NCBI GenBank assembly: GCA_963785145.1
Contig: CAWAUF010000015.1
Span: 14,120-78,119 of the forward strand
DNA length: 64,000 nucleotides
Reading direction: 5' to 3'
Source of the DNA: an uncultured Gammaproteobacteria bacterium
GTDB lineage: Bacteria; Pseudomonadota; Gammaproteobacteria; Legionellales; Legionellaceae
Every line of letters begins with the position of its first letter. Position 1 is the stretch's first letter. Made by a program: the position numbers and the translations under genes. This document shows, piece by piece, positions 113 to 64,000 of the stretch. The notes below the pieces were generated by a model. The model did not search any database, was not told where the DNA came from, and saw only the letters and a program-made list of their open reading frames with translations.

Positions 113-173
113 GCGATGCTCAACTTTTCACGGAACCATACGGGCCCGGGCCCGTGAGCGAGCCCGAGCCCGC
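113..173. repeat. Left terminal inverted repeat (about 61 bp, GC-rich) of the composite mobile element. It contains the internal perfect palindrome ACGGGCCCGGGCCCGT.
   Basis: Its reverse complement is found at 1222-1282. The same sequence recurs at 43535-43595, 62841-62896 and 63940-64000. Confidence 0.85.
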
Positions 174-184
174 CCGAGTTCCGC

Positions 185-538
185 CTAATCTGTTTTTTTT
201 GCCATTTTAGTCAACATCATAACAATGCGATTCAGTAATTCTCTTGTTAATTGATAATATTCATCATGTATAATGTTTAAACGTTTGGATACTTCCAATA
301 TCGCTGCGGTTTCTGTAGCAGAACGTTTTGCCATGCGGTAGAATCTACTTTTTTCGTTAGGGGAGAACTCTCCTGAGCCCTCAGCAATATTCAATGAGAT
401 CGATGTCCCAGCTCGTTGAAGTTGGTCGGTTAAATAAGCTCTGCCGCGAGGAAAAGCTGTAGTGATTTTATCAATGAATACCACAACCTCAATGGAGGCT
501 TGGTATACATCCAATTTTTCAAAATCGAAATAACTCAT
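185..538 (-). CDS. Four-helix-bundle protein (23S rRNA intervening-sequence protein / Avd-like family, PF05635-type)
   Basis: 117-aa ORF with the family-typical N-terminus (FxxLxVYQxSIEVVVFIDKIT...FPR) and the NIAEGSG core motif. Identical copy at 63579-63932; frameshifted copy at 43608-43962. Confidence 0.7.
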   Translation of the reverse strand: MSYFDFEKLDVYQASIEVVVFIDKITTAFPRGRAYLTDQLQRAGTSISLNIAEGSGEFSPNEKSRFYRMAKRSATETAAILEVSKRLNIIHDEYYQLTRELLNRIVMMLTKMAKKTD

Positions 539-653
539 AGTTGGATTTCCTTATAATTAAGTTTTGGACTTGAAACAATTTCCTGTTGAGTGACATAGCG
601 CTTTATTGTAATTTGGTTCGCTAAAAAGTGGGGCATTATCAGATAAACTTCAT

Positions 654-1217
654 ATGGCAGATGGATTGCCAATGCCTATTTGCCATTTTAAACGCGCGGG
701 ATTTAGTTCCATCTTTAAGGGTATTGCATCCTATGGTTACTGTGCCTCCAAGAGCGAGACCTACTACGGCTTTAAAGGCAATCTTGCCATTGGTTCCGAT
801 GGGATGATCACAGGAATCACTGTGACGCCGGCTAACATTGATGAACGTGAATCATTATGGGACATCATTGGAAACATTCGCGGTCTTTTAATCGCAGATA
901 AGGGTTTAATTGGCGAGGATTATCAAGCACAAATCAGAGAACACACACAAGTTAACTTGCAGACACCATTACGTAGCAATATGAATGACCCGAGAGGGAG
1001 GCATTTTAGTCGCTGGCTAACATCAACAAGACGACTGGTTGAAACAGTTATTGGGCAACTATCGCAGCAGTTTCACATCGAAAAAGTCAGAGCAAGAGAT
1101 CTGTGGCATTTAACAAACAGAATTGGGAGAAAAGTACTAGCGCATACTGTTTGTATGATGGTCAATAAAATATTAGGAAATCCTCCCTTACAATTTGAGT
1201 GCCTTGAAATTGTTTAA
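654..1217 (+). mobile_element. IS982-family DDE transposase, C-terminal about two thirds only (N-terminus deleted)
   Basis: 187-aa ORF with IS982-like motifs (PMPICHFKRAGF, YGYCASKSETYYGFKG, ADKGLIGEDY). The N-terminal tnp segment is missing here, but remnants of it survive in copy B at 44074 onward (MPIEDFIITVFCLIDDECKK). Confidence 0.7.
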
Positions 1218-1221
1218 AAAC

Positions 1222-1282
1222 CGGGCTCGGGCTCGCTCACGGGCCCGGGCCCGTATGGTTCCGTGAAAAGTTGAGCATCGCG
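1222..1282. repeat. Right terminal inverted repeat of the composite element
   Basis: Reverse complement of 113-173. Confidence 0.85.
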
Positions 1283-1360
1283 TAGGATTACAATTATTTT
1301 AGGTGCAAATGGATTAAGCATGTCGTATCATCGAAGGGTCTATTTTTATGGAGTAAATGC

Positions 1361-1789
1361 ATGAGAGGATGGAAATCGTTATTCGTTTTTGCAGTATCAT
1401 TCACCCCAATGACTCTGTCCGCCGCAATATCCCCTGTTGGCACCTGGACAACCATTGATGATAAAACTGGAGAAAAAAGAGCCGTGGTTCGGATTGAACA
1501 ATCTGGAAATACATTGACTGGTACTATTGTAAGAGTTTTCCCTCAAGCCGGAGACACCGGGATTTGCAACAACTGCCCTGGGGAGTTTAAAGATCAAAAA
1601 ATTCAAGGCCTGCAGTTTCTTCGCCAACTAACCGATGACGGTCACGGCGAATGGGGTGGTGGCACCATTCTTGATCCAAAAACGGGTAAAATGTACAGAG
1701 CCAAAATCACTGTTGCTGGCAATAAACTTTATGTCCGCGGATACATTGGCATATCCGCCATAGGCAGGACACAAACCTGGATACGATAA
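1361..1789 (+). CDS. DUF2147-like secreted protein (signal peptide)
   Basis: 142-aa ORF with an N-terminal signal sequence and the GxWxTIDDKTGE motif typical of DUF2147. Confidence 0.45.
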   Translation: MRGWKSLFVFAVSFTPMTLSAAISPVGTWTTIDDKTGEKRAVVRIEQSGNTLTGTIVRVFPQAGDTGICNNCPGEFKDQKIQGLQFLRQLTDDGHGEWGGGTILDPKTGKMYRAKITVAGNKLYVRGYIGISAIGRTQTWIR

Positions 1790-1793
1790 GACA

Positions 1794-3170
1794 ATGTTTG
1801 ATCTAAAACAGTCTAAAAAAACCGTTGATCCTTTAAAAAGACCTCCTCATTCCGTCGAGGCAGAGCAATCCATCATCGGTGGATTGATGTTGGATAATCA
1901 GGTTTGGGATAAAATCAGCAATAAATTGTGCGAGGCCGATTTTTATCGCATAGAACATCGAATTTTATTTCGCGCAATCGCCACCTTATCCAAAAAGGAT
2001 CAACCCTTTGACGTGGTGACTCTGCTGGATGCCCTGACTTCTTATAATGAATTAGAAGACGCCGGCGGCGAAGCGTATTTGTTTGAATTGGCCAATAACA
2101 CACCCAGTGTGGCCAATGTCACCGCTTATGCAGACATTGTCCGCGAAAAATCCGTTCAAAGACAGCTCATCGGCGTTGCCACTGAAATCGCAGATTCAGC
2201 CTATAATCCGGAAGGCCGTGAGGTACCGGAATTATTGGATTTAGCCGAAAGCAAAGTGTTTGCCATTGGCGAGCAAACTGCTGGCGACGGCGGCCCTGAA
2301 AACATCAAATCCATCTTAGTACGCGCCGTAGAAAAAATCGATGCACTCTATCACAATGGCGATGCACTCACGGGAATAGCCACAGGCTTGACTGATTTAG
2401 ACGAAATGACTTCCGGTTTGCAAGCCTCGGATTTGATCATCGTTGCTGGTCGTCCCTCCATGGGTAAAACCACCTTGGTGATGAACATGGCCGAGCACGC
2501 GGCCATTAAATCGGGCAAACCCGTGCTCGTTTTTTCCATGGAAATGCCGGCTGATTCTTTAGCCATGCGGATGATGTCTTCTTTGGGACGCATTGATCAG
2601 CACCGCATTCGAACGGGTAAATTAAACGACGAAGATTGGCCACGAGTCACCTCTGCAGTGCACATGCTGTCTGAAGCGCCCTTATACATAGACGACAGTC
2701 CGGCTTTAAGTCCTGGAGAATTGCGTACTCGGGCCAGGCGACTGGCCAAAGAACAAGGGGCCTTGGGTTTGATTGTTGTGGATTATCTGCAATTGATGAA
2801 AGCCCCGGGATTCAGTGCCGACAACAGAACGGCTGAAATCTCCGAAATCTCACGCAGCTTGAAATCCTTAGCCAAAGAATTGAGCGTACCCGTGGTTGCC
2901 CTCTCCCAATTAAACCGGAGTTTGGAGCAGCGCGCCGATAAACGTCCCGTGATGTCGGATTTAAGAGAATCGGGCGCAATTGAGCAAGATGCGGATGTCA
3001 TTTGTTTCATTTACCGAGACGAGGTGTATAATAACGACAGCCCTGAAAAGGGTGTGGCCGAAATAATCATTGCAAAGCAACGCAATGGCCCTATTGGCAA
3101 GGTTCGCGTGGCCTTTATTGGCAAATACACACGATTTGAAGATTTGGCCTTTAATGGCCAGCAAGGGTAA
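1794..3170 (+). CDS. dnaB: Replicative DNA helicase DnaB
   Basis: 458 aa with Walker A (GRPSMGKTT) and a DnaB N-terminal domain. Lies in the conserved dnaB-alr neighbourhood. Confidence 0.95.
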   Translation: MFDLKQSKKTVDPLKRPPHSVEAEQSIIGGLMLDNQVWDKISNKLCEADFYRIEHRILFRAIATLSKKDQPFDVVTLLDALTSYNELEDAGGEAYLFELANNTPSVANVTAYADIVREKSVQRQLIGVATEIADSAYNPEGREVPELLDLAESKVFAIGEQTAGDGGPENIKSILVRAVEKIDALYHNGDALTGIATGLTDLDEMTSGLQASDLIIVAGRPSMGKTTLVMNMAEHAAIKSGKPVLVFSMEMPADSLAMRMMSSLGRIDQHRIRTGKLNDEDWPRVTSAVHMLSEAPLYIDDSPALSPGELRTRARRLAKEQGALGLIVVDYLQLMKAPGFSADNRTAEISEISRSLKSLAKELSVPVVALSQLNRSLEQRADKRPVMSDLRESGAIEQDADVICFIYRDEVYNNDSPEKGVAEIIIAKQRNGPIGKVRVAFIGKYTRFEDLAFNGQQG

Positions 3171-3176
3171 ACCCAG

Positions 3177-4253
3177 GTGTCCAGACCAACCCAATTCATC
3201 ATCAAACCCAGCTCGCTCTTGCACAATGTGGCGCAAGTGAAGCGCTTTGCGCCCAACAAAAAAATCATCGCCATGGTCAAGGCCAATGCCTATGGATGCG
3301 GCGTTCGACAGGTAGCACCTACTTTAGAAGGGCATGTGGATGCCTTTGGGGTGGCCTGCATAGAAGAAGCGCTGCTGCTTCGTTCCATTGGCATTCGCAC
3401 CGAGTGTTTGATTTTCCAGGGTATCTTTCACCCCTCTGAATTGCAAATCGCAGTCGAGCAAGGCTTCAGTCTGGTACTTCATCAAACCGAACAATTGCAG
3501 TGGCTGTTAAACACACCTCTCAAAAGCCCTCTAAAACTCTGGGTCAAAGTGAACACGGGCATGAACCGCCTGGGTTTGGACATTGCTCAACTCACAGAGG
3601 TGATGCATGCCCTGCAAGGCTGTGCCTGGGTGGATAAAAACATTGGATTGATGACTCACTTAGCCTGTGCCGATGAACCCGAACGCATTGAAAATGCAAA
3701 ACAAATTGCCTTATTCAATGAGATCTCCATCTCAGGCTTTACCCAACGCAGCATGGCCAATTCAGCAGCCCTCATGGCCTTACCCCAAACGCATGCGGAC
3801 GCACTAAGACCTGGACTCATGCTCTATGGAGTATCTCCCTTTGCCCATCAAACTTCCCTGGATTTGGGTTTAAGGCCGGTCATGCATTTTATGTCTGCAA
3901 TCACCGCCATTCACTCCATCTCTGCCAGTGTCCAAGTGGGTTACACTGGCGCTTGGCAAAGCAGCAAACCCGCCATCATCGGCATTGTGGCCGCGGGCTA
4001 TGGCGATGGATACCCCAGGCACATCACAAATAACACACCCGTGTGGATACAAGGGCAGGAAGTATCCATTGTGGGAAAAGTGTCTATGGACACCTTAGCC
4101 GTGGATTTGACCCATCACCCAGAAATCAAATTAGGCGATCCGGTTGAACTGTGGGGCAATCATGTGTTGATAGAACGCATCGCCAAATCCGCAGGCACAA
4201 TTGCCTACGAATTGTTATGCCAAACCTCCAGTCGTGCACGGTATACTCTTTAA
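3177..4253 (+). CDS. alr: Alanine racemase
   Basis: GTG start. PLP motif [11 protein letters not shown]. Immediately downstream of dnaB. Confidence 0.9.
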
Positions 4254-4466
4254 CCCATTACTCTACCATTTTATCGCCGCCAAAGTTTTATCTGCCGTGA
4301 TCATTCGAATTAAATGCCAAGAAACCAATTGGGTTTGGTCTTCCAACTCCCAGCCTGATCTGACAAAGGAATTCCGAGTCTTTGAATAATTTTTCCTAGG
4401 TATGGATAATAACTAAACTTGATGATAGAATGGCAGGCGATTTGCAACGTATTAATCAGGTGACCT

Positions 4467-4904
4467 ATGATGAAAAAAATTTTGATGACTTTATCTCTAA
4501 CAGCCATGCTCGTGGGTTGCGCCAATGAAGACGTGGGTTCGGTCTCAGGTGCCATTGCTGGTGGTTTATTAGGCAGCCAATTCGGCGGCGGTTCAGGCCA
4601 AGTAATAGCAGCTGGCGTGGGAGCCCTAGCAGGTGCGTATTTAGGTGGCCAAATCGGTCGAAGCATGGATAGACAAGATCAACTGGAAATGCAACATGCC
4701 CTTGAATCAGCCCCTACAGGACGCGTTGTGGCCTGGTCCAATCCCAACGGCAACCGTTATTCTGTCAGACCAACCAGAACCTACTACGAAGACACACAAC
4801 CTTGCCGTGAATACACCACCCGTGCCTTAATCGGTGGAAAATCCCAAGAAATTTATGGTAGAGCTTGTCGTCAGGCGGATGGATCTTGGCAAGTAGTGAA
4901 TTAA
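4467..4904 (+). CDS. Glycine-zipper outer-membrane lipoprotein (17-kDa surface antigen / SlyB-like family)
   Basis: Lipobox LVGC, a Gly-rich GxxxG zipper segment and a C-terminal conserved domain. Confidence 0.65.
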
Positions 4905-4915
4905 AATTTAAATAG

Positions 4916-4948
4916 AAATCCGCAGATGCAGCCGCCTGCGGATTTTCT
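4916..4948 (+). terminator. Rho-independent terminator
   Basis: 10-bp stem AAATCCGCAG/CTGCGGATTT followed by a T-run, 12 nt after the stop codon. Confidence 0.6.
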
Positions 4949-5034
4949 TACAATTAAAACTGTATCCTCCTGGTCCCTAACCCTGTCCACACATTCCAAA
5001 TTGTGCTATATTTATACAAGGCAAAGCAATTTTC

Positions 5035-5481
5035 ATGGAGAATGAGATGGCCAATTTAATTCACAACGTGCTGCAGTCGCCTCCCCGCAAAATCATTTAC
5101 ATACATCCCAATGACACGATGGAAAAATGCATTCAATTGATGACCGAATTGGATATTGGCGCCCTAGTTGTTGTGGATAACGACGATCTTTTGGTGGGCA
5201 TAGTCAGTGAACGCGACATCGTGCGTTCTTTATACAAAGGTTCTGATCCTAAGCATACAAAGGCAAAAGAGATTGCTTTTTCCGCAGTAACCATACTCAG
5301 TCCACACGATGTGGTAGAAAAGGCCATGCAAGCCATCACCAAAACGAAAAGAAGACATCTTCTAATCTACGATAAAAAAGAACGCGTTTCGATTTTATCC
5401 ATAGGCGATTTACTTTATTACTTATTAGAGGATCAATCGCGAACGATTGAACAATTGGAAAATTACATTCATACTTACTAG
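5035..5481 (+). CDS. CBS-domain pair protein
   Basis: 148 aa with a CBS-like pattern (GALVVVDNDDLLVGIVSERDIV). Confidence 0.6.
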   Translation: MENEMANLIHNVLQSPPRKIIYIHPNDTMEKCIQLMTELDIGALVVVDNDDLLVGIVSERDIVRSLYKGSDPKHTKAKEIAFSAVTILSPHDVVEKAMQAITKTKRRHLLIYDKKERVSILSIGDLLYYLLEDQSRTIEQLENYIHTY

Positions 5482-5504
5482 CATTGCCCTTTTAAATATT
5501 TCTT

Positions 5505-6680
5505 TTGATGAAAATTCTTATACGACTTTTTTTATTCTGCATGCTTGCATCGAACAACCTCTGGTCCGAATCAACTCCCATCACTTGGTATACGCTGGAT
5601 GCAAATAAACAAGCGACAATTGCGGTTGAATTGTTTTTATCAAGCACGTGTTCGCATTGTCATAAGGCGGATGATTTTTTCAAATCCATAGAACAATCCA
5701 ATCCTTGGCTGAAAGTCCATCGCCATGTCATCAACAATGACAAGCAGGCCTTGATTTTGTTTAGCCAACTTCTAAACCAATTAGGACTCAAGGATTTCTC
5801 AGTGCCCTCCATGTTTTTTTGCAATTCCCGCTGGAGTGGCTTTGCAACTTCTCAAACCAGTGGCAGAGATCTGCTGCAGGCCTTGAAATATTGCAAGCAA
5901 CACATTGAAAAAAAAGGGGAATTAACTCAAAACACAAGCACAGTACTGCAACAACAGGCCAATTCCAACAAAGGAGTTCAAATCAAAGAACCTTCTTCCA
6001 TTAAAACCACCCTTTACATTGCAGCAATCAATCTCATGTACTCTTGCTCTATTTTCTGTATTATGACCTTTTTAAGCATCCTGTTTTTGCAGCCAAATCG
6101 CAAAGATCAACTGCTGTTAGGCCTTTTATTTATCATCACCCTAAGCCTCATGCATTTTTTCCAACAAAGGCATATGGGTATTTATTTTACACTTCTACCC
6201 TGGATGCGTATTCCGGCAGCTTTAATAGGCTTGTTATCCGTGCAGGTGGCCAGACTGCATTATCAAAATCAGGTCACAGTCTTCTTATCGTATGCAACGA
6301 CCTTTTTATTGGCCTTGATGATTGGATTGTATCAACAAACCTGCTCCACCAATTGGTTTTATCTGTTTGAACAATGGCTGACTCAACACCACTTCGATGC
6401 AGTCCAAACTGCTTTTTATGCAACCTTGTATCACTTTACCTACGTTTTACCCTTGTTGTTGGTACTGATCCTGTATTTGTTCCTGGTCAATGCAAAGCGC
6501 TTGAGAGCATTTAAAAATCGGTTAAGACCCCTAGGCATGCTATTTTTTGTCACCATCGGTTGCATTTTAATCGCATACCCCTTTGCTTTGTCTTACTTAT
6601 ATACGTCTTATTTCATACTCCTTCTCCTGCCTATCTGCGCATGGCTTATTAATCGGTTTTATTTAAAGAAAACCGAATAA
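5505..6680 (+). CDS. Thioredoxin-fold (CSHC) periplasmic domain fused to a polytopic membrane domain; unknown function
   Basis: Signal peptide, then a CxxC (CSHC) thioredoxin-like N-terminal domain. The C-terminal half is hydrophobic with about 7-8 predicted TM segments. Confidence 0.45.
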   Translation: MMKILIRLFLFCMLASNNLWSESTPITWYTLDANKQATIAVELFLSSTCSHCHKADDFFKSIEQSNPWLKVHRHVINNDKQALILFSQLLNQLGLKDFSVPSMFFCNSRWSGFATSQTSGRDLLQALKYCKQHIEKKGELTQNTSTVLQQQANSNKGVQIKEPSSIKTTLYIAAINLMYSCSIFCIMTFLSILFLQPNRKDQLLLGLLFIITLSLMHFFQQRHMGIYFTLLPWMRIPAALIGLLSVQVARLHYQNQVTVFLSYATTFLLALMIGLYQQTCSTNWFYLFEQWLTQHHFDAVQTAFYATLYHFTYVLPLLLVLILYLFLVNAKRLRAFKNRLRPLGMLFFVTIGCILIAYPFALSYLYTSYFILLLLPICAWLINRFYLKKTE

Positions 6681-6689
6681 GGGCTTGGA

Positions 6690-6950
6690 ATGAATGAGGC
6701 CGAATTCAGACACTTACTACCCATAGCCATTGAGGTGGAGCAAGGCAAAAGCTACATCTGGTGTGGCTGCGGTTTGAGTAAAAATCCACCCTTTTGTGAT
6801 AAAACCAATTGCAGCAAGGCCATCACCATTCGTGCCCAATTGAACGAGACCCTTCACTTTTGTAACTGCAAACACACTAAAAATCCACCCTGGTGTGATG
6901 GTTCTCATGCCAAATTGTTAATGGAGGCATTAAAAAAAAGAAAACCCTAA
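6690..6950 (+). CDS. CDGSH-type iron-sulfur domain protein (two motifs)
   Basis: CxC...PFCD and CNC...PPWCDGSHA motifs. Confidence 0.7.
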   Translation: MNEAEFRHLLPIAIEVEQGKSYIWCGCGLSKNPPFCDKTNCSKAITIRAQLNETLHFCNCKHTKNPPWCDGSHAKLLMEALKKRKP

Positions 6951-7000
6951 ATTCAATCTATAATATTAAAAAACAACACAAAACCACTGGAGATCGGATC

Positions 7001-7192
7001 ATGGAATGTAAATGCAGCAAATGCGGTATGAGCGTAAAAAATTTAACCTGCGGTAAATGCAATGCGGCCTTAGTTGAAGACACCATTCAAACCGGGCAAG
7101 GCGATCGCATCAAAGTGGCCAAGTGCCCTAAAGGCTGCGGAAAAATCAAATCCCCAACCTGTTGTGGACAAGACATGTCCTGTTCAGTTTAG
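7001..7192 (+). CDS. Small Cys-rich metal-binding protein (12 Cys in 63 aa)
   Basis: CxC-x2-C, CGKC and CPKGCGK...CC motifs. Confidence 0.4.
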   Translation: MECKCSKCGMSVKNLTCGKCNAALVEDTIQTGQGDRIKVAKCPKGCGKIKSPTCCGQDMSCSV

Positions 7193-7303
7193 AACTGCGT
7201 GTTTTTTTTTAAAACCAACATTGAGCATGAGGCGGTAGTCTCGAGCACCGATGTCATGCTCGATGGCATCTTGGTGTGTTCGCTATTTAAATCCCTGAAG
7301 TGT

Positions 7304-14511: not shown

Positions 14512-14518
14512 AATGGGT

Positions 14519-18994: not shown

Positions 18995-19987
18995 TCACTC
19001 CATCTGGAGATTTGAAAATTTCAAAGTAAGCGGCGGAATGTCATCCTTCAAACGATTCTTTAATTGTTCCAAGGTGGGTCTCTTTTTAGGATCCTTTGCT
19101 AAGCAGTCCTCGATTAAGGCACTTAAATTTTCATCGGTTTCATCAAACACATCATTCATGAGTACCCCAAGAGAGTATACGTCCATTTCTCGAGTAGCCA
19201 TTACGGGAATGGGCCTCACTGACCAGCATTCCGGGGGAATGTGCTCGTAATCTATTTTATACTGTTCTACTGTGGCCTTGTTGACTTTCTGAAAGGCAAG
19301 GGGATCAATAGGCGTGTTTGCTGGGGCAGAAAGGCCTCCATCAATCAAATAGCTTTTTTTGGTAGCGGCATCAAAATAAATGTTATCCGCTTTCAATCAA
19401 ATCATGATCATCCCTTTTTGATGACACTCATGTAATGCATCTATTGCCGAGGAAAAAAGAACTCTTTGAAATTCTGGATTGTCCATTTCAAGTTTTTCAT
19501 AGGGAACATAGGGTACATAGGGTACAACCAGCCTGTAGCCGGGCTTGGTATTGAATAAGTGAGTTTGCTTGTCTGTATAGACGGTCTTAAAAAATCTTTG
19601 TTTAATAGAAGCTTCGCCTTTATCTTCAGGCAGCTTGACTGAAGATAAAACGACTACGGCTTTGCTAAAGCCAAAGCTAGAGCTTGGCCTTCTTCTTAAT
19701 CTTCTTGGGGTTGAGTGTAGGCTTGGGCTTGGGCTTGGGCTTGGGCTTGAGACTGAATTCGGTTTAGATACTGGGTTTAAGCCCAGGGCTGGGCTTGAAT
19801 CCAAGCTGGTACTTGAATTTGGGTTTTTGGTCAAGCTAGGCTTCAACTGAGGCCCAGATTGAAACAGTCTGGCACGCGCGTAGTCACCACTCCCAAGAAC
19901 CGTTACAGGATGATAGGTTGTTCCTCCATCGCTTTCATATTCTGAATCATCTAATGCTTCATTCGCTTTATTTTTATAACGTCCCAT
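18995..19987 (-). pseudogene. Atypical eukaryotic-like protein-kinase paralog, interrupted by an in-frame TGA near 19397-19399
   Basis: Split across ORFs 19397-20062 and 18995-19396, which together align with the intact paralog at 27139-28071. The break is HQKGMIMI*LKADNIYF here versus HQKGMIVVDLKADNIYY there. Also carries an (SP)n linker encoded by a (GGCTTG)5 repeat. Confidence 0.55.
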
Positions 19988-43327: not shown

Positions 43328-43534
43328 TCCTTACAAGGCTTGAAATTTGCCGATTATTATATCAAATTACTGCAAGAATGGGTATCTTATTTTTTTATTA
43401 TTATTTTTATTCGAGTTGCATAATAAAAAATGTTTCTAAAAGAGATAACCCGATTATTTGCTACAGTAATTTTCCCTATCACCAGAAAAACGTCCATATT
43501 TCTTGTTTGATAAAGATGATCATAGATATCTTGA

Positions 43535-44460
43535 CGCGATGCTCAACTTTTCACGAAACCATACGGGCCCGGGCCCGTGAGCGAGCCCGAGCCCGCCCGA
43601 GTTCCGCCTAATCTGTTTTTTTTGCCATTTTAGTCAACATCATAACAATGCGATTCAGTAATTCTCTTATTAATTGATAATATTCATCATGTATAATGTT
43701 TAAACGTTTGGATACTTCCAATATCGCTGCGGTTTCTGTAGCAGAACGTTTTTGCCATGCGGTAGAATCTACTTTTTTCGTTAGGGGAGAACTCTCCTGA
43801 GCCCTCAACAATATTCAATGAGATCGATGTCCCAGCTCGTTGAAGTTGGTCGGTTAAATAAGCTCTGCCGCGAGGAAAAGCTGTAGTGATTTTATCAATG
43901 AATACCACAACCTCAATGGAGGCTTGGTATATATCCAATTTTTCAAAATCGAAATAACTCATAGTTGGATTTCCTTATAATTAAGTTTTGGACTTGAAAC
44001 AATTTCCTGTTGAGTGACATAGCGCTTTATTGTAATTTGGTTCGCTAAAAACAGAAATCACAAGGAGTAGCACTATGCCAATTGAGGACTTTATCATTAC
44101 GGTATTTTGCTTAATAGATGATGAGTGTAAAAAAATCGGTGGTGGTCATAGATTAACGCGATGTTCGACTTTTCCCATCCTGAATTGAACTAAATTTGAA
44201 AAACACAGCATTTTATTGTAATTTTTGGTTCGCAAAACAGAAATTACAAGAAGTTACCCTGTGTCAGTTGAAGATTTTATCATTGCTGTGTATTGTCTGT
44301 TGAATTAAGAAAGATCACTGAGGTTCATCGATTGAGAAGCCGTGGTTTTGAACTGAAATTGTCAGATGCGGAAGTGATTACTATGGATATTGTTGGATAG
44401 TTTTTAGGCAAGGATACAGATGCAGGCATTAGGAATGGTTCTTAATTGTGAATGGCAGTG
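43535..44460. mobile_element. Composite element, copy B (degenerate): left IR, frameshifted four-helix-bundle gene, two tandem remnants of the IS982-like left end and tnp N-terminus; no right IR
   Basis: The IR at 43535-43595 has one mismatch. The four-helix-bundle gene has a 1-nt insertion (ORFs 43608-43811 and 43687-43962). Tnp N-terminal fragments are MPIEDFIITVFCLIDDECKK at 44074 and VSVEDFIIAVYCLLN at 44262. Confidence 0.65.
43608..43962 (-). pseudogene. Four-helix-bundle protein gene, frameshifted copy
   Basis: Two overlapping reading frames together reproduce the 117-aa protein of copies A and C; the extra T lies near 43752. Confidence 0.6.
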
Positions 44461-45880: not shown

Positions 45881-47530
45881 CTATTTTGCCCAAGTGTCTT
45901 TTAAATCAACCACACGATGAAAGGCTTGTACCTGCCCATCTGTTTGTGCATTCACACAATAATAACCGAGACGTTCAAATTGAAAAACCTCGCCACAATC
46001 TTGTTTTTCCAAAGAAGGTTCACAATAAGCGGTCAGTGTTTGTAACGAATTATGATTTAAAAACTGTAAAAAATCGTCCTCTCGCGCAGGATTTGGATCA
46101 TTGAACAATCTATCGTATTGATACACAGTGACCGGCTTTGCATGCGCACAAGAGACCCAATGAATAACTCCCTTCACTTTACGCCCCTCAGGATTTTTAC
46201 CCAAGGTGTTTTCATCATAGGTACAACGCAACTCGATGATTTCCCCTTGAGGATTGCGCACAATCTCATGGCATTTGATCACATAAGCATAGCGCAAACG
46301 AACCTCTCCCCCCAGGGTTAATTTAAAAAATTTCTTAGACGCTTCTTCCATGAAATCGGAACGTTCAATGAATAATTCTCTAGAAAAAGGCAGGTCACGC
46401 TTTTCAGACTCCGGATCTTGTGGGAAAAAGGGACATTTCAGAGTTTCGGTTTTCGATTCAGGATAGTTTTCCAGGATTATTTTGAGAGGATCCATCACGC
46501 AAAAGGCACGCTTGGCGGTTTTATTCAACTCCGCACGCACGCATTCTTCGAATAAAGACATCTCAATGACTGAATCACTGCGCGATATGCCTATCATCTC
46601 ACAAAATTGTCGAATGGCAGCAGGCGGATAACCTCGTTTTCTCATGCCACGTAAAGTAGGCAATCGAGGATCGTCCCAGCCAGAGACGATGTTTTTCTCC
46701 ACCAATTCTCGCAATTTGCGTTTGGAAGTCACGGTGTGGGAGAGATTCAACCTTGCGAATTCCGTTTGAATGGGTTTTGCCGGTAAAGGCAAATGATCAA
46801 CCAACCAATCATATAAAGGCCGGTGATCTTGAAACTCAAGGGTGCATAAGGAATGCGTGATTTTTTCCAGGGCATCTGAAATCGGGTGGGCATAATCATA
46901 CATAGGATAAATGCACCATTCATCTCCAGTGCGTTGATGATGTGCATGGCGTATGCGATACAAGACTGGATCGCGCAGGTTGATATTGCCCGATTGCATG
47001 TCAATTTTTGCTCGAAGCACATGAGTGCCGTCGGAAACTCACCAGCTTTCATCCGTTTGAATAAATCCAAACTTTCGTCCATGGACCGATTGCGATAAGG
47101 ACTGTCGCGACCAGGTTCTAATAAATTGCCTCTATGGGCACGAATTTCGTCCATACTCAGACTGTCCACATAAGCCAAGTTCTTTTGAATGAGCACAATG
47201 GCCAGATCGTACAGTTCTTGATAATAATCCGAGGAATGCGTCAGTGCACGTCCATTCAAAACCCAACCAGCGCACATCATCTATGATGGCATTGACGTAT
47301 TCTTCCTCTTCTTTGATGGGATTGGTATCATCAAAACGCAACAAGCAAGTGCCTGAAAACTCTTCGGCCAAACCAAAATTGAGACAAATTGATTTTGCAT
47401 GTCCAACGTGCAAATAACCATTGGGTTCTGGCGGGAATCGGGTCACTATGGCTTTATGTTTGCAATTTGCCAAATCGTCTTTAATCAATTGTCTGATAAA
47501 ATGTGGGCGTTTTTCAATTAAGTCGGTCAT
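45881..47530 (-). CDS. glnS: Glutamine--tRNA ligase (reading frame broken twice, near 47130-47280 and 46750-47020)
   Basis: Three consecutive ORFs (47132-47530, 46747-47280, 45881-47020) are collinear with GlnS; HIGH motif HVGHAKS is present. Confidence 0.8.
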
Positions 47531-48344
47531 GCTGTTGTTCCATTGTTATCGATTGCAACTCGCATCGAGTTGATCAGAGTGACACCTGCTTGAAGTGGGT
47601 TTCCATCGCGTTCATAGCTCTCAAAAAGTTGATTGACTAAGGCTGCACCTACTATAACACCATCCGCAAAACTTGCAACCTTTGCAGCCATTTCGCCTGT
47701 TTTAATGCCAAATCCGACCATCAAGGGCAGTTTGGTTTGCGCCTTTAATTGCAGGTATTGCGATTTTAATGAGTTGATGTCCAGCGAATCGGCACCGCTG
47801 ACTCCTTTTAAGGAGACATAATAGAGATACCCTTCGGCCATTTGATTGATCAAAATCATGCGTTCTTGAGTAGTGGTGGGTGAACACAGATAGATGTTGT
47901 ACAGGTGGTGTTGTTTCCAGATTTTTGCGACCTCAGTACTTTCTTCTGGTGGGAGATCCACGAGAATGGTCCCATCGACGCCTGCATCAACAGCCTCTTG
48001 GGCAAATCCATCGTAGCCGTATTGTTCAAGGGATTCACATAACTCATGAGAATAAGGGCTGTGTGTTGATCCTGTTTGCGAAACTCTTTGACCATCTCCA
48101 AGACATCTTGGCAGCGAATGTTGTGGCTTAAAGCACGTTCCATGGCATGCTGGATAACCGGGCCTTCTGCCATGGGATCGGAAAAGGGAATGCCCAACTC
48201 TAAAACATCCGCTCCGGCTTCAACCAAGGCATGCATGATGTTGACCGTGAGGTTCGGATGCGGATCCCCTGCGGTGATGTAAGGGCTTAGCATTTTTTTC
48301 CCACTGACCTTTAATTCTGACAAAATAGTATCAATTCGATTCAT
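47527..48344 (-). CDS. trpA: Tryptophan synthase alpha chain (frameshift near 48080)
   Basis: ORFs 47856-48344 and 47527-47961 correspond to the TrpA N- and C-terminal halves. Confidence 0.75.
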
Positions 48345-48347
48345 AAT

Positions 48348-49556
48348 ACACCATCATTTAATCCAATGTAATTCCGTCAATCTCAGCTACAGTATGCATG
48401 TCTTTATCTCCTCTGCCGGATAAACAGACGATGATGTTTTCATGCTTGGACATCCTTGGAGCCAATTTCAACGCATAAGCCACCGCGTGGCTTGATTCCA
48501 GGGCTGGCATGATGCCTTCCACACGCGTTAAAGTACGAAAGGCATGCAGCGCTTCTTCATCGTTTATGGCTTCGTAGAGGACTCGGCCAGAGTCTTTTAA
48601 ATAGGCATGTTCTGGTCCTACTCCAGGATAATCCAGACCGGCGGATACGGAGTAAGTATCTTTAATTTGACCAAAATCATCGCAGAGCAGATAGGTGCGA
48701 TTGCCGTGTAAAACCCCAGGTCTTCCAGCCGTTAAGGAGGCCGAATGTTACCCGTGTTGAGACCCTTTCCCCCAGCCTCGATTCCATACATGGCAACGGC
48801 TGGATCATTTAAAAAAGGATAAAACAGTCCAATGGCATTCGAACCTCCACCCACACAGGCGACCAGGGCATCAGGTAATTTTTGGTGATTTCCAGGCATT
48901 GTTTTTTTGCCTCATCCCCAATGATTCTTTGAAAATCCCTAACCATTTGTGGGATAAGGGTGGGGTCCTGCGGCAGTTCCAATGATATAAAAAGTATTGT
49001 CTACATGGCTAACCCAATCCCGCATCGCTTCATTTAAAGCATCTTTTAAGGTTTTGGAGCCAGAAGTGACTGGAACAACGGTGGCGCCTAATAATTTCAT
49101 GCGATAGACATTGCTGGATTGTCGCTTGATGTCTTCTATACCCATGTAAACGACGCATTCCAAGCCCAGCTTCGCAGCGATGGTGGCCGTGGCCACCCCA
49201 TGTTGGCCAGCGCCGGTTTCAGCGATGACTCGGGTTTTTCCCATGCGTTTTGCCAGCAGCCCCTGGCCCACGGTGTTGTTGATTTTATGCGCACCAGTAT
49301 GGTTCAAATCTTCTCGTTTCAGATAAATTTGGGCGCCTTTTAATTGTTGACTCAATCTTTGGGCGTGATACAGCGGATTTGGTCGACCAACATAGTTGGC
49401 TAATTCTGTTTGCAATTGCGCTTTAAATAGAGGATCGTCTTTGTACTGTTCATAAGCCGCTTCCAATTGCGATAAGGCATGGACTAAGGTATCGGCCACA
49501 AACATGCCGCCATAAGGACCAAAATGTCCGCGATCGTCAGGAAGTTCATAGGTCAT
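48348..49556 (-). CDS. trpB: Tryptophan synthase beta chain (at least three homopolymer frameshifts in the 3' half)
   Basis: The N-terminal 205 aa is intact ([12 protein letters not shown] site). The C-terminal half is recoverable only by shifting frame at A-runs (for example ggtaacattcg where ggtaaacattcg is expected). Confidence 0.75.
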
Positions 49557-57570: not shown

Positions 57571-57756
57571 TTCGTGGTATAATGCGTTTTTTGTTCTGAT
57601 CGCAATCCTTTATACATACGAAAAAGTCCGGATATGGTTTGTTTAATGTTTCATTACTGCCCGTATTCTGATTTTTATTTGCAAAATTAAGACTGGATAC
57701 CAGCATACAAGTCAATAATACCAAAAAACAGGAGAATAATTTAATCACAATACCTC

Positions 57757-58341
57757 CTTAGTGGTAGTCGCTTTCATTCCCCACCGATGCCCCAATGGTA
57801 GGCAATAAATCGGCTAAGTCATTGGCATGATCTTCTTCCTCTGCCAAAATCACTTCCAACAAACGTCGCGTGGTGGGATCGGCGTTTCCAAACCAATGAT
57901 CAATTTTCTATAAACCATGATCGCAATGCGTTCAGCCACCAGATCTTCTTTGATCATGGTTTGAATGTCCTTGCCACAACCAAATTGTGTGCTGGCTCTT
58001 TGCATGATGGTTGCTGGATTAAAATCAGGATTGCCGCCTAACTGATTGATGCGTTCTGCAAGTATCAGCATGTGATTTTCTTCCTGCAAAGCGTGTTCTT
58101 CAAATTCTGCGGCGATTTGAATGCTGTTGATGCCCTTGGCGATGATTTGATGATGCCTGTATCGAAGCACACACAAGATCTCGGTTGCAAGTGCTTCATT
58201 GAGTAAATGACAAGCCTGTTCTATATCCAAGGGATAATCCTGGGTCACTGCTCCATCGTCTAAGAATTTACTGGCCTCTCTTCGAATTTCATCAATATTG
58301 TAGGGAGGCTTGTCCGTTTCCACGTGTTTTGAAGATTTCAT
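57757..58341 (-). CDS. bfr: Bacterioferritin-like ferritin-family protein (frameshift near 57900)
   Basis: ALATEILCVLRYRHH...EEHALQEENHM ferritin-like motifs. The C-terminal about 45 aa read in a different frame. Confidence 0.5.
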
Positions 58342-58417
58342 TTTTTTGTCCTTAAGTAAGAATATGTATTAATTATGGACTATTTTTTTAGAAAATGAAT
58401 AAAGAATGGCAGATTTT

Positions 58418-59065
58418 TCATGGCTTAGGAATATACACATCGAAACGGATTGTTTTACCATCAAAGCTTAAACTGGGGGGCAGCAAGGGTTTTCGCTTTT
58501 GTGGCCACTTAACTACAACGCGCTGTTTGGCACGAGTGAGAGCGCATTGGATCAACTCCAAAGCATCCTCGTCCGCACCGATAAGCTTTTGCAGGGCTTG
58601 CATGTCTTTTTTAACCAAAGCGGCCTTGCTGCGTTCCGGATGCATGGGATCAATGTAAATCACATCCGGGTATTGGCAGGGCTGCAGCTCCTTTAAATAG
58701 GTTTTAGCATCCACCTCTAAAAAATCCAGATCCATGAGTGTTTTATCCTGATCACTTCTATGCTTTAAGGCATCCCGTAATAAAATGGCCATCCACGGAT
58801 GGCGTTCTAACATCAGGACTTTTGCGCCGAAACTACTCAAAATGGCTGCATCACGGCCCCACCCCGCGGTTGCATCCACAATGCGGATTCCCGGTGCGGG
58901 TTTACAAGCTCGAATCAGGCCTTGTTTTTTCCCAGCCGCCTTTCTTTTGTTCCAAGTGGCAGCGGTGAAATCAGCAAACAATGGTGAACAGTTTGGAATA
59001 TTTAAGGTCAATCTCTCTTCCAAGTGACCTGCCTTTTCATATGTTAAGGCTTTGATTTCAATCAT
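58418..59065 (-). CDS. rsmJ: 16S rRNA (guanine1516-N2)-methyltransferase RsmJ
   Basis: VDATAGWGRDAAIL and IYIDPMHPERSKAALVKKDM motifs. Confidence 0.85.
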   Translation of the reverse strand: MIEIKALTYEKAGHLEERLTLNIPNCSPLFADFTAATWNKRKAAGKKQGLIRACKPAPGIRIVDATAGWGRDAAILSSFGAKVLMLERHPWMAILLRDALKHRSDQDKTLMDLDFLEVDAKTYLKELQPCQYPDVIYIDPMHPERSKAALVKKDMQALQKLIGADEDALELIQCALTRAKQRVVVKWPQKRKPLLPPSLSFDGKTIRFDVYIPKP

Positions 59066-59597
59066 GGAGGATCTGTTTTACATAATCCATTAAGGAATGA
59101 TGCACTGGCACCTCGGGGTAATTTTTCAATTGTTCCCTATCGGTCATGGAGGACAGTATCACAATGGGAGTAGCGCCGACGGCCAATGCAACTTGAATGT
59201 CTGACACACGATCGCCAACAAAGGCAATTTTGTTCAAGGAACACTGCAGTTGCTTTGCCAAGGCAATGAGCATCCCAGGTTGTGGTTTGCGACAACAACA
59301 ATGCAACTCAGGTATGTGAATGCAGTATTCAATGGCATCAATTCGGCCTCCATGAGCCTCGACGCATTGCATCAATTTTTCATGAATGGCTTTTAAAGTA
59401 TTCTCCGTATAAAAACCTCTACCTACACCTGACTGGTTGGTTGCCACTCCAATGGAATACCCGGCCTCAGTCAATTTGGCTATGGCTTCCAGGCTTCCAG
59501 GAATCGGAATGAATTCATCCGGGGTTTTTATGTAAGCCAAGGAGTCGTAATTGATCACTCCGTCTCTGTCTAAAAGGATGAATTGTTTTGATTTCAT
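59058..59597 (-). CDS. gmhB: D-glycero-beta-D-manno-heptose-1,7-bisphosphate 7-phosphatase (HAD family)
   Basis: LLDRDGVIN HAD motif I; 179 aa. Confidence 0.8.
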   Translation of the reverse strand: MKSKQFILLDRDGVINYDSLAYIKTPDEFIPIPGSLEAIAKLTEAGYSIGVATNQSGVGRGFYTENTLKAIHEKLMQCVEAHGGRIDAIEYCIHIPELHCCCRKPQPGMLIALAKQLQCSLNKIAFVGDRVSDIQVALAVGATPIVILSSMTDREQLKNYPEVPVHHSLMDYVKQILHD

Positions 59598-61663
59598 AGT
59601 TGCAACATAGAAATATCAGCAACTCCTTGCAATACGCTTTGTAATTTGGCCAAAATGGCAAGCCGATTGCCTCTTAGAGCATTCTGTTCAACCATGACCA
59701 TTACTTTATCAAAAAACACATCGATGGGCGCCTTTAGGCTGGCCAATTGTTGGAGTATGGCGCTGTAATCTGCTTTAAGGTATAACTCATCGACTGAGGC
59801 CGAGATGTTGATCATCTCATCAAATAAAGCTTTTTCAGCATCCTCTGCCAGTAAGCGGTCCTCAATTTGAGTTGGAATCCCATCTTTTTGATTTTGAGTT
59901 AATATATTATTCACCCGTTTACAAGCCGCAGATAAAAAGCTGGCTTCAGGCATGGTGATGAAGGATTTTAAGGCATTTAAACGACTGTCCAGATCAAACA
60001 ACCATTCGTTTTGACGTGCACGAACGGCTAAAATGAGTTCGGGTGCAAATCCTTGACTTTGATAATGCGATTGCAGCCGCTCCAAAATAAAGGATTTTAA
60101 GTCTGAAATGGGATCTTTGTCCTGAACCAGGGAGGCAAAGGGGAGCAAGGCCTCCTCAATTAAAGTACTCAGATTCAAAGCAACCGGCATAGAAATCAAC
60201 AAACGCACCACGGCCAGGGCATGGCGCCTTAGTTTGAAGGGATCTTTGATGCCGGATGGTTTTTGTCCAATGGCAAATAACCCTACCAAGGTGTCTATTC
60301 TATCGGCTAAAGATAAGGCCGTTCCTAAATTGGATTGGGGCAACTCATCCGCTGCAAAACGCGGCATGTATTGTTCGTTCAAGGCTTGAGCAACCAAGGG
60401 ATTTTCACCATCATGCAGGGCATAATAATAACCCATCAACCCCTGCAACTCTGGAAATTCTCCCACCATCCCGGTCATTAAATCGCATTTGCTTAATGAG
60501 GCTGCTCTTTGGCTGTGCTCTGCAGTGATGGGGTAGATCTGACTTAAATGTTCCATCAGGGCTTGAATGCGTAGGGATTTGTCATACAGGCTACCCAATT
60601 TATTTTGAAAAACAACTTGTTGGGTTGCTGGGATGTATGCGCTTAATTTTTGATTTTTATCCTGTTTAAAAAAGAAAGCGGCATCGCTTAAACGTGCACG
60701 CATGACTTTTTCATTGCCTAAAACCACTTGAGTTGGATTGGTACTGGCTATATTGGCCGTGGTGATGAAATAAGGCAGTAAATGTCCAGACTTGTCTTTT
60801 AAGGCAAAGCATTTTTGATGCACTTGCATGGCTGCAATCAATGCTTCTGCAGGCACTTCAAGGAATTCCTTTTCAAAAGAGACTAGATAAGATTGCGGCC
60901 ACTCCACAATGGAGGTGACTTCATCCAACAAAGCTTGAGGCATTAGGGCGATGGCATCCTGAGCCTTTGCTAATTCATTCACTTGTTGTTTGATGAGTTC
61001 CTGTCTTTTAGCAAAATCCGCGACGACAAAGGCTTCCTGCAACTGCAATTCGTATTGAGCAGCGCTGGAAATGGTCAACTTTTGTGGACAATGAAAACGA
61101 TGGCCTCGGCTTTGATTCGAGGATTGAATGCCTAACAATTGACTTTCAAGGACTTCATCTCCATACATCATCAAAGCCCAATGCACGGGGCGGGCAAATT
61201 CTTCATTGCAATTTCCCCAGCGCATGGGTTTGGCAATGGCCAGGGCACTTAAGGCCTGGTTTACAAAGCCTGGCAATAAATCTTTGGTTTGAGCTCCCGA
61301 ATCTTTAGTTTCATGAACAATCCATTCGCCCTTGTCTGTTTGAAGTCGGGACAATTGAGCAGGGTCCACTTTGCAAGACAAAGCAAAACCCAATAAGGCT
61401 TGGGTGGGTTGGCCGTCAGCGGTATAAGCGGCTGAGACCGCGGGACCTCGACGCATGCTGCTTTGACTTTCTTGTTTGCTTTGCAGATCGTGGATCACAA
61501 CCGCAAGACGTCTTGGGGTAGCAAAGCGCTTTACTTCGCCGTATTGCAGTTGTGCCTTGTCCAAAACAGCCAGTAACTGACTGACAAAAGCGTCGGCTAA
61601 AGGCCAAACGCTGGCAGAAGGCAGCTCTTCACAGCCTAATTCAAATATGAAATCATGAACCAT
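59594..61663 (-). CDS. glyS: Glycine--tRNA ligase beta subunit
   Basis: 689 aa; overlaps glyQ in the conserved glyQS arrangement. Confidence 0.9.
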
Positions 61664-62558
61664 AATGCACCTTTTGCATGGGAAATCCTAAGGCTTCTCG
61701 CCTTTCGTAGTAGGCTTTAGCCACGGATTGCGACAACTTTCTCAATCTTAAAATAAACCCCTGCCTTGCCGTGACGGAGATGGCCTTGCGTGCGTCTAAC
61801 AAATTGAAGGAATGCGAGGCTTTGAGGACCATCTCATAGGCTGGGAGCGGAAGTTGTATGGCGATGAGGCGGTGTGCTTCTGACTCATAGTAATCAAATT
61901 GTTTAAAGAGTTGCTCAACGTCCGCTTGTTCAAAGTTGTAAGTGGACATCTCCACTTCGTTTTGATGAAAGACGTCGCCGTAGGTGATGAGCCCATGCTC
62001 TGTCTGGCTCCATGGCATGTCAAAAAAATTATCCACGCCTAAAATGGACATGGCCAGTCGTTCCAAACCATAGGTTAATTCGCCGGTGACCGGTTTGCAA
62101 ACCAGTCCACCCACTTGCTGAAAATAAGTAAATTGGGAGATTTCCATCCCATTTTGCCAGACTTCCCATCCCAATCCCCAAGCTCCAAGACTGGGCGATT
62201 CCCAGTTGTCTTCTACAAAGCGGATGTCATCCGCTAAGGGATCGACACCCAGTGCTCGCAGGGAATCCAGATATTTTTCCTGAATGTCTAAGGGGGAGGG
62301 TTTTAAAATGACTTGGAATTGGTAATAATGTTGCGTACGATTCGGATTTTCGCCATATCGTCCATCCGCAGGACGTCTACTGGGCTGAACATAAGCCGCA
62401 GACCAAGGCTCAGGACCAATGGCACGTAAAAAAGTGGCCACGTGAAAGGTGCCCGCCCCCACTTCCAGGTCCAGAGGTTGTAAAAGAATGCAACCCTGAG
62501 AGGCCCAATAGTTTTGTAAAATGAGAATGATGTCTTGAAATGTAGTGGGCTTTGTCAT
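61653..62558 (-). CDS. glyQ: Glycine--tRNA ligase alpha subunit
   Basis: Near-identical to E. coli GlyQ over most of its length ([11 protein letters not shown]...[19 protein letters not shown]). Confidence 0.95.
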
Positions 62559-62899
62559 ACAACTCATGAAACTCTCCAATCAACGATTTGCCCATGAAAT
62601 GGCTTTAGCCATTATAACCTTCTAATGGACTTGGAGCCAGCGATTTGAGCGCTAGGGGTGCTGATTTGTCATAGGCAGACAGTTTGATTGTTTAAAGATC
62701 AAAATCCAATGGATAACAATATGACGGTGGGTTTGGCCTGTCCTGATTTGCGAGAAAACTTACACCCAAGGATGGTAAAGGCCCAGTTAGCAAATGCAGC
62801 ACCTATACAGAAAATGAAGCGTATAAAAAGAGATTTATAACGCGATGCTCAACTTTTCACGGAACCATACGGGCCCGTGAGCGAGCCCGAGCCCGGTTT

Positions 62900-63463
62900 T
62901 TAAACAATTTCAAGGCACTCAAATTGTAAGGGAGGATTTCCTAATATTTTATTGACCATCATACAAACAGTATGCGCTAGTACTTTTCTCCCAATTCTGT
63001 TTGTTAAATGCCACAAATCTCTTGCTCTGACTTTTTCGATGTGAAACTGCTGCGATAGTTGCCCAATAAATGTTTCAACCAGTCGTCTTGTTGATGTTAG
63101 CCAGCGACTAAAATGCCTCCCTCTCGGGTCATTCATATTGCTACGTAATGGTGTCTGCAAGTTAACTTGTGTGTGTTCTCTGATTTGTGCTTGATAATCC
63201 TCGCCAATTAAACCCTTATCTGCGATTAAAAGACCGCGAATGTTTCCAATGATGTCCCATAATGATTCACGTTCATCAATGTTAGCCGGCGTCACAGTGA
63301 TTCCTGTGATCATCCCATCGGAACCAATGGCAAGATTGCCTTTAAAGCCGTAGTAGGTCTCGCTCTTGGAGGCACAGTAACCATAGGATGCAATACCCTT
63401 AAAGATGGAACTAAATCCCGCGCGTTTAAAATGGCAAATAGGCATTGGCAATCCATCTGCCAT
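62900..63463 (-). mobile_element. IS982-family transposase C-terminal fragment (copy C)
   Basis: 186 of 187 aa identical to the product of 654-1217. Confidence 0.7.
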
Positions 63464-63578
63464 ATGAAGTTTATCTGATAATGCCCCACTTTTTAGCGAA
63501 CCAAATTACAATAAAGCGCTATGTCACTCAACAGGAAATTGTTTCAAATCCAAAACTTAATTATAAGGAAATCCAACT

Positions 63579-63932
63579 ATGAGTTATTTCGATTTTGAAA
63601 AATTGGATGTATACCAAGCCTCCATTGAGGTTGTGGTATTCATTGATAAAATCACTACAGCTTTTCCTCGCGGCAGAGCTTATTTAACCGACCAACTTCA
63701 ACGAGCTGGGACATCGATCTCATTGAATATTGCTGAGGGCTCAGGAGAGTTCTCCCCTAACGAAAAAAGTAGATTCTACCGCATGGCAAAACGTTCTGCT
63801 ACAGAAACCGCAGCGATATTGGAAGTATCCAAACGTTTAAACATTATACATGATGAATATTATCAATTAACAAGAGAATTACTGAATCGCATTGTTATGA
63901 TGTTGACTAAAATGGCAAAAAAAACAGATTAG
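63579..63932 (+). CDS. Four-helix-bundle protein (copy C)
   Basis: Product identical to that of 185-538. Confidence 0.7.
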   Translation: MSYFDFEKLDVYQASIEVVVFIDKITTAFPRGRAYLTDQLQRAGTSISLNIAEGSGEFSPNEKSRFYRMAKRSATETAAILEVSKRLNIIHDEYYQLTRELLNRIVMMLTKMAKKTD

Positions 63933-64000
63933 GCGGAACTCGGGCGGGCTCGGGCTCGCTCACGGGCCCGGGCCCGTATGGTTCCGTGAAAAGTTGAGCA

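Follow-up and report, generated by a model that had tools for sequence, protein, structure and literature searches.

Two inverted copies of a defective IS982-family element in a Legionella-like chromosome: probable independent insertions of one non-autonomous derivative

We describe two copies of a defective insertion sequence (IS), here called A and C, that lie in inverted orientation near the two ends of a 64,000-nucleotide stretch of DNA from an uncultured bacterium of the Legionellaceae (assembly GCA_963785145.1, contig CAWAUF010000015.1, positions 14,120 to 78,119; "the window" below means this whole stretch). The closest described system is the canonical IS982-family element, such as that of Legionella santicrucis (L090) and the ISAba9-like elements, which is about 1 kb long and has one open reading frame (ORF) and short terminal inverted repeats (IRs). 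The element in the window shares with it a DDE transposase of the NF033520 and PF13612 models, AC termini, terminal IRs, and target duplications of 7-8 bp, and the L. santicrucis transposase is 78% identical to that of the window. However, the L. santicrucis element has neither a hairpin nor a second gene, whereas the parent of the window's copies is 1.5 kb long and has a second, divergent gene and 62-nt IRs with a GC-rich hairpin. In addition, the transposase gene of the window's copies has lost its 5' third.

Non-autonomous IS derivatives, including MITEs (miniature inverted-repeat transposable elements), provide a second comparison. For example, the IS982-derived MITE of Cardinium is maintained by intact parental copies (PMC9769881). 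Intact ends, a lost transposase, several copies, and intact parental copies are common to MITEs and to the window's element, but the latter is far larger (1,173 bp), is known from two copies, and retains, besides an intact accessory gene under selection, two-thirds of the transposase ORF. ISs that carry passenger genes are called transporter ISs (tISs) in ISfinder usage, and the window's element resembles them in having a non-transposase gene between the IS ends that moves with them. The difference lies in the passenger: in place of a gene for resistance, regulation, or metabolism, it is a PF05635 four-helix-bundle gene, and inverted repeats of its own flank it.

Two further systems are similar in outline. 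Composite transposons such as Tn5 and Tn10 also consist of a segment bracketed by two inverted IS copies, but the pair in the window has no functional transposase, A has a target duplication of its own, and the cargo would be 61.6 kb of essential chromosomal genes. The S23p-encoding intervening sequences in the 23S rRNA genes of Coxiella burnetii and Leptospira also contain a PF05635 protein gene within long, highly complementary inverted repeats a few hundred nucleotides apart (PMC4990558). In contrast, the element described here lies in intergenic DNA, and its arms are separated by a transposase gene and lie inside IS ends. An intervening sequence of that kind is located in a 23S rRNA helix and excised by RNase III, and there is no Rfam rRNA match in the window. 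When the window and copy A were scanned for Rfam families, tRNAs, promoters, and terminators, nothing rose above background, and neither rRNA nor any other RNA family was found.

Our principal finding is that A and C are very probably two independent insertions, in a Legionella-like chromosome, of one non-autonomous derivative of a 1,500-bp IS982-family IS. A repeat search of the window identified inverted arms at 117-1247 and 62870-64000 (1131 nt, with complementarity rounding to 100%), and a gapped alignment widens the match to 117-1283 versus 64000-62840. This alignment contains three substitutions (569/63548, 1047/63070, and 1101/63016) and a single 6-bp indel, namely a GGGCCC unit absent from the inner IR of C, and the identity is about 99.7%. 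The window ends 6 nt short of the projected terminus of C at 64006. A preliminary description of this DNA, made from the sequence alone, had presented the two copies as identical reverse complements; the inverted orientation stands, while "identical" has to be read as the figure just given. Coordinates of the copies and their parts are listed in Table 1.

Table 1. Coordinates in the window of the IS copies, their component parts, and their flanking sequences
Feature	Position	Strand	Remarks
Left target-site duplication of A	104-110	.	AGGATTA, read from the sequence
Copy A	111-1283	+	1,173-bp non-autonomous derivative (327-bp deletion) of the 1,500-bp IS982-family IS
Left terminal IR of A	111-172	+	62 nt; 111-140, IS982-type end beginning ACGCG; 141-172, GC-rich hairpin/arm
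Accessory four-helix-bundle gene of A	185-538	-	117 aa, intact
Deletion junction in A	623-627	+	327 bp of the parent IS missing; blastn against L080
Remnant transposase ORF of A	654-1217	+	187 aa, residues 111-297 of the 297-aa protein
Right terminal IR of A	1222-1283	+	Hairpin at 1222-1253, then IS982-type end
Right target-site duplication of A	1284-1290	.	AGGATTA, identical to 104-110
Copy B	43534-44156	+	Decayed left 622 nt of a non-deleted copy; direct orientation to A
Second, diverged IS982-type remnant	44157-~44430	+	Nested in copy B; own left end ACGCGATGTTCGAC
Inner flank of C	62833-62839	.	ATTTATA; putative 7-bp duplication, partner expected at 64007-64013, outside the window
Copy C	62840-64000	-	Same 327-bp-deleted derivative, inverted relative to A
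Inner (right) terminal IR of C	62840-62895	-	One GGGCCC unit missing in the hairpin
Remnant transposase ORF of C	62900-63463	-	187 aa, 1 amino-acid difference from A
Four-helix-bundle gene of C	63579-63932	+	117 aa, same translation as that of A

The common origin of the two copies is indicated by a deletion that they share. Relative to three full-length copies (L080, L081, and L082), both A and C lack the same 327 bp, which correspond to positions 348-674 of L080: in a blastn comparison, window 282-627 matches L080 1-347 and window 625-1230 matches L080 672-1277. The junction, which in C lies at 63490-63494, coincides with a 3-nt AAA microhomology, and outside the deletion A is 99.2-99.5% identical to these full-length copies. 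Beyond the deletion, one substitution (column 1372 of a 14-member family alignment) is private to A and C, and C alone has three further private substitutions and the indel. Since both the deletion and the private single-nucleotide polymorphism (SNP) are shared, A and C evidently derive from one already-deleted progenitor, of which they are sister copies. The comparison with full-length relatives thus bears out the earlier observation that both copies have the same internal deletion, by which the IS left-end region was joined to the middle of the transposase gene. The accompanying proposal, a duplication of an already-rearranged unit, survives insofar as it implies a single deleted progenitor; the event itself is better read as transposition of a non-autonomous derivative than as a segmental duplication.

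With the deletion, both the ribosome-binding site and transposase codons 1-101 are gone, so that A and C are non-autonomous; the leftover ORF begins at Met111, and neither copy encodes a complete transposase. The lost N-terminal region is assumed to be the DNA-binding part of the protein. Other deletion derivatives with intact ends are present in related samples, namely L083, L085/L086, and the 677-bp L087/L088.

The family assignment depends on both the transposase and the ends. The 187-aa ORF of A matches the IS982 transposase model NF033520 over positions 77-242 of 243 (E=5.5e-53, 180 bits; cut-off 130 bits), and the transposase also matches PF13612 and PF01609. A protein search found a full-length 297-aa transposase (P0121) that is 99% identical to the fragment; it is encoded by L080, a JGI metagenome contig that holds the missing 327 bp and has 99.5% nucleotide identity to the element in the window. 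The terminal IRs are perfect over 62 nt (100% complementary in A) and start with ACGCG; AC termini are, in the ISfinder family table, a mark of the IS982 family. In a plasmid collection, the only IS982 matches were a canonical element on an L. longbeachae plasmid and distant ones of the Acinetobacter ISAba9 type, and the four-helix-bundle matches were solely distant cyanobacterial ones.

The parent element can be reconstructed from complete copies. An ENA sequence (L079) contains a complete 1,499-bp element, 90% identical to that of the window, in which the four-helix-bundle gene and a 296-aa transposase gene lie divergently between the same ends. In order, the parent consists of a left IS982-type end, a GC-rich hairpin, the outward-reading four-helix-bundle gene, the oppositely reading 297-aa DDE transposase gene, a second GC-rich hairpin, and a right IS982-type end. 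Contigs of the ENA sample ERZ25039595 encode an accessory 117-aa protein identical to that of the window and contain four full-length 1,500-bp copies, with 97.6-99.3% identity to the reconstructed parent and transposase ORFs of 297 aa in three copies and 286 aa in the fourth. With 1,500 bp and two ORFs, the parent departs from the usual IS982 plan of about 1 kb and a single ORF; nevertheless, its transposase and ends are clearly of IS982 type, and we treat it as a variant architecture within the family rather than as an element excluded from it.

Flanking sequences provide a test of whether the pair has rearranged anything. A is bracketed by perfect copies of AGGATTA; seven out of seven bases would agree by chance at fixed positions with a probability of about 6e-5. 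The four full-length copies of ERZ25039595 are bracketed by duplications, three of 7 bp and one of 8 bp (TAAAATTA, AAGTATA, TAGCTCA, and AAAATTA), so that the 7-bp footprint of A is the normal product of this element's transposase. These lengths fit the IS982 family, for which the ISfinder range is 3-9 bp. The test is a discriminating one, because about half of 45 IS701-like copies in the related metagenome-assembled genome (MAG) MFD02248 do not have matching flanks, while duplications are intact at all five copies of the window's IS for which both flanks are visible in long contigs.

These observations bear directly on the suggestion in the preliminary description that the copies probably mark a rearrangement breakpoint, in other words that homologous recombination between A and C inverted the 61.6-kb segment and that the copies are the inversion junctions. 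Such an event is mechanistically plausible: genomes rich in ISs are well known to undergo IS-mediated inversions, a pair of inverted repeats 1.17 kb long and 99.7% identical is an adequate RecA substrate, and the IS701-like copies without matching flanks indicate that such recombination happens in this group. However, an A-C crossover would separate the halves of the duplication, leaving A with half of its own and the reverse complement of half of that of C, and this is contradicted by the perfect duplication on both sides of A and by the five of five copies with intact duplications. In addition, the GC skew declines steadily across the window with no switch, and no strand discontinuity is seen inside it, although the window contains almost no sequence outside the repeats. 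We therefore consider inversion very unlikely. Judging from its flanks, A is a simple insertion, with no A-C inversion since it arrived, and the inverted pair offers no more than a potential substrate for inversion by homologous recombination. For C, past recombination with a third copy is conceivable in principle.

The same flanks argue against a composite transposon, in which A and C would be the ends of a 63.9-kb unit that moves as a whole. The arrangement has some resemblance to one, since intact terminal IRs are present on two copies bracketing a segment and both outer ends are "left" ends, as in Tn5 and Tn10. If the unit had been inserted en bloc, though, the duplication would be found only at the two outer ends; the outer flank of A instead equals its inner flank, so A was inserted alone. 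Moreover, a complete transposase is missing from both copies, the cargo consists of core housekeeping genes (dnaB, alr, secDF, hslUV, cysS, glnS, trpFBA, truA, folD, and glyQS), and the DUF2147-dnaB-alr adjacency is also found in L. parisiensis. We regard this interpretation as improbable in the extreme, in agreement with the doubt already expressed in the preliminary description that the 61.6 kb form a translocatable unit. The block from dnaB to glyQS is ordinary chromosome and not a mobile island.

The preferred explanation, two independent insertions of one deleted derivative, would involve the following steps. In one parent copy, 327 bp would have been lost between AAA microhomologies, with both 62-nt ends and the four-helix-bundle gene kept. 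The deleted copy would then have been mobilised in trans by the transposase of full-length copies, which would cut at the shared ends. The resulting insertions, each with a 7-8-bp target duplication, would be those upstream of DUF2147-dnaB (A) and upstream of glyQS (C). Mobilisation in trans by full-length copies is the most likely route, and such copies would be expected to reside in the window's genome.

A problem in this scheme is that a deletion could also spread if two copies, inserted independently, underwent gene conversion. In that case A and C would again be independent insertions, at least one of them full-length, the deletion and the linked SNP would later have been copied from one site to the other, and the defective element would never have transposed. 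Identity of 99.7%, the shared deletion and SNP, and the perfect 62-nt identity between the two ends of A, which suggests ongoing homogenisation, are all compatible with conversion. So is the failure to find the exact junction elsewhere: the 327-bp deletion junction was sought in JGI metagenome contigs with 0 matches, and the mobility of the derivative is therefore documented by these two copies only. On the other hand, conversion requires one event more than mobilisation in trans. Many multi-copy deletion derivatives with target duplications exist in the window's IS family and its IS701-like relatives, and defective copies are thus routinely mobilised. For these reasons, we infer that transposition brought the deletion to the second site, and we rate gene conversion as unlikely.

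Several other points weigh against independent insertion of a derivative mobilised in trans. The link between the full-length copies and the window is a shared metagenome sample together with an exactly matching accessory protein, and residence in the same genome is an extrapolation from this; a comparison of GC content and tetranucleotide composition did not tie contigs L081-L084 to the window's genome. The empty site for A, consisting of its left flank, a single AGGATTA, and its right flank, was sought in the JGI metagenome contigs and gave 0 matches. In addition, the outer flank of C is beyond the end of the window, and of its presumed target duplication only the inner side is visible.

Because C lies at the edge of the window, an assembly artefact also has to be considered, in which one copy, most plausibly C, is a misjoined or misplaced repeat. 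The window ends inside C, contigs of ERZ25039595, the probable source sample, break inside copies of this IS (L083 and L084), and the assembly has indel errors, as indicated by frameshifts in glnS, secF, trpA, and trpB. Against this, unique sequence is present on both sides of A and on the inner side of C, and the two copies differ from each other at three sites and by one indel. A collapsed consensus would resemble the commoner full-length copies, but C has the 327-bp deletion, which is rare. Furthermore, the frameshift pattern and the contig names suggest a long-read assembly, and long reads would easily span 1.2 kb. Taken together, these points make an artefact highly improbable.

The frameshifts split glnS (45881-47530) into three ORFs and secF (29056-29974) and trpA (47527-48344) into two each, and trpB (48939-49556) covers only model positions 1-194 of 385. 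Since these genes are essential, the frameshifts are most likely residual indel errors of a long-read consensus rather than marks of pseudogenes. Note that, in a long-read assembly, single-base differences between the copies should not be over-read. The source contig may itself end inside copy C, as in L083 and L084, that is, contigs of ERZ25039595 that also begin or end inside copies of the window's IS.

In annotation, both repeats should be masked as the defective IS copies that they are. The pair is also a possible inversion site, which is relevant when assemblies of this uncultured Legionella-like lineage are compared. In themselves, two defective IS copies are an ordinary case and nothing new in kind.

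The preliminary description treated the part of the element on the far side of the deletion as an IS left-end region. It is indeed the left end, but it is more than an end, because it holds a conserved four-helix-bundle gene that is under strong purifying selection (dN/dS 0.04-0.13 between IS lineages). The 117-aa product matches PF05635, "23S rRNA intervening sequence protein" (E=3e-26, 92 bits; cut-off 33.8 bits), and TIGR02436 (E=5e-25, 87.8 bits; cut-off 24 bits), and its nearest solved structure is PDB 2gsc (XCC0516; E=7.7e-12). Derivatives without a transposase, the shortest of 677 bp, still keep the gene. In each 62-nt end, the inner half (141-172 and 1222-1253) is a GC-rich hairpin; its stem is 14-15 bp long, its predicted stability -34 to -45 kcal/mol, and its z-score -3.4 to -4.6. 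Where the hairpin varies, pairing is preserved, since C and U replace each other opposite G (as read on the sense strand of the adjacent gene). The hairpins have no U-tract and hence are not canonical intrinsic terminators.

The loss of a GGGCCC unit from the hairpin arm is recurrent and independent: it is seen at the inner end of C (62866-62880) and at one end each of L082 and L084. It looks like slippage in a hexamer repeat, and it lowers the predicted hairpin stability to about -19 kcal/mol.

We call the four-helix-bundle gene, together with the roughly 60 nt upstream of it and the hairpin, the cassette; its parts in copy A lie at 141-172, 185-597, and 1222-1253. In Legionellales, the cassette is also found in an unrelated IS family. 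It has 84-86% nucleotide identity with IS701-like (PF13546) elements, in which the cassette occupies the same relative position (L003-L045 of MAG MFD02248.bin.1.53; L011, L047, and L052). In the IS701-like elements, the hairpin motif recurs at the far end, just inside it, and in both IS families the arms lie just inside the IS ends. MAG MFD02248.bin.1.53, a long-read assembly, contains about 45 IS701-like deletion derivatives of 0.5-1.6 kb, with no intact transposase in the stretches examined; about half of the copies have 4-6-bp duplications, many of them of 5 bp, and the other half have non-matching flanks.

Furthermore, the cassette occurs at stand-alone loci (L031-L042, L048, and L054) in Chlamydiae, Verrucomicrobia, Bradymonadia, Longimicrobiales, and other groups. 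Ten of these loci were checked, and in nine the gene has no transposase neighbour and is enclosed by inverted repeats of 17-102 nt (34-102 nt in eight of the nine). The repeats are 86-100% complementary, lie 372-471 nt apart, and are mostly of the same (CGGGCN)n type as the motif in the window's IS, and these cassettes sit between housekeeping genes. Their layout is the one known from S23p-encoding 23S rRNA intervening sequences. In one related contig (L001), the cassette hairpin is followed, 4 nt downstream, by a group II intron (2492-2861; Rfam RF02001, 120 bits) that begins GTGCG and takes the place of the IS982 end; its placement resembles the targeting of terminator-like stem-loops by class C introns.

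One tentative interpretation of these data is that the left-end region is a self-contained, intervening-sequence-like cassette, that its IS-borne and MITE-like forms are a vehicle moving S23p/intervening-sequence cassettes between sites and genomes, and that the protein serves the mobile element and not the host. We consider this possible, although on balance doubtful. A transposon origin of the 23S rRNA intervening sequences was proposed in the 1990s, according to a passage of PMC4990558 that cites the proposal. Literature searches yielded no account of IS passengers that are PF05635 genes. The presence of the cassette in a second IS family, and on its own in distant phyla, makes the spread of S23p-type intervening sequences and the role of the protein open to experimental test.

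A third copy of the element, B, was absent from the preliminary description. Its identity to the full-length reference (positions 1-622) is 98.7%, and it retains the left IR, the undeleted leader, and the first 27 transposase codons, together with a four-helix-bundle gene disrupted by a frameshift. In the repeat search, a 1-nt register shift in this copy divides the repeat families D1 and D2. The second IS982-type remnant, nested in B, has a stop-riddled transposase N-terminus with neither a four-helix-bundle gene nor a hairpin, and its identity to the reference is 71% at the nucleotide and 65% at the amino-acid level, with an in-frame stop. This nested debris (43534-44430) adjoins the 3' end of cysS; copy B is broken at transposase codon 27, and both elements are then cut off.

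The host sequence itself has the character of a Legionella-like chromosome. The window has a GC content of 42.9%, and DnaB (1794-3170) is 91% identical to its counterparts in L. parisiensis, L. bozemanae, and others, these being the nearest named genomes. As had been stated earlier for dnaB, secDF, glnS, and glyQS, the 61.6-kb segment between the copies carries core genes, which comprise dnaB, alr, an mltA-like gene, hisC, secD, secF, hslVU, deoB, cysS, glnS, trpA/B/F, truA, folD, rlmJ, glyS, and glyQ. L. parisiensis, at this level of DnaB identity, keeps the order DUF2147-dnaB-alr-17kDa and has an SNF2 helicase gene upstream of DUF2147; the corresponding place in the window is taken by a divergent ORF whose product starts MAKNNIPEDK. 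Between genomes this far apart, the difference has no bearing on inversion. A 7-kb Logan contig (L076) with an identical DnaB fragment begins inside the DUF2147 gene, short of the IS.

At the inner junction of C, a 50-codon ORF (62688-62840; 39 codons from the first ATG) ends in a TAA whose final base is the first base of the copy. It had no Pfam match and could be the 5' stump of a gene broken by the insertion.

Two stretches of low GC content (0.37-0.40), at about 25-28 kb and 52-57 kb, contain orphan ORFs, a eukaryote-type protein kinase, and a J-domain protein. A further inverted repeat in the window, 19218-19665 versus 27305-27752 (448 nt, 73% complementary), reflects diverged paralogues: the ORF at 27139-28071 has a eukaryote-type protein kinase domain, and its partner at 19-20 kb is split into two ORFs.

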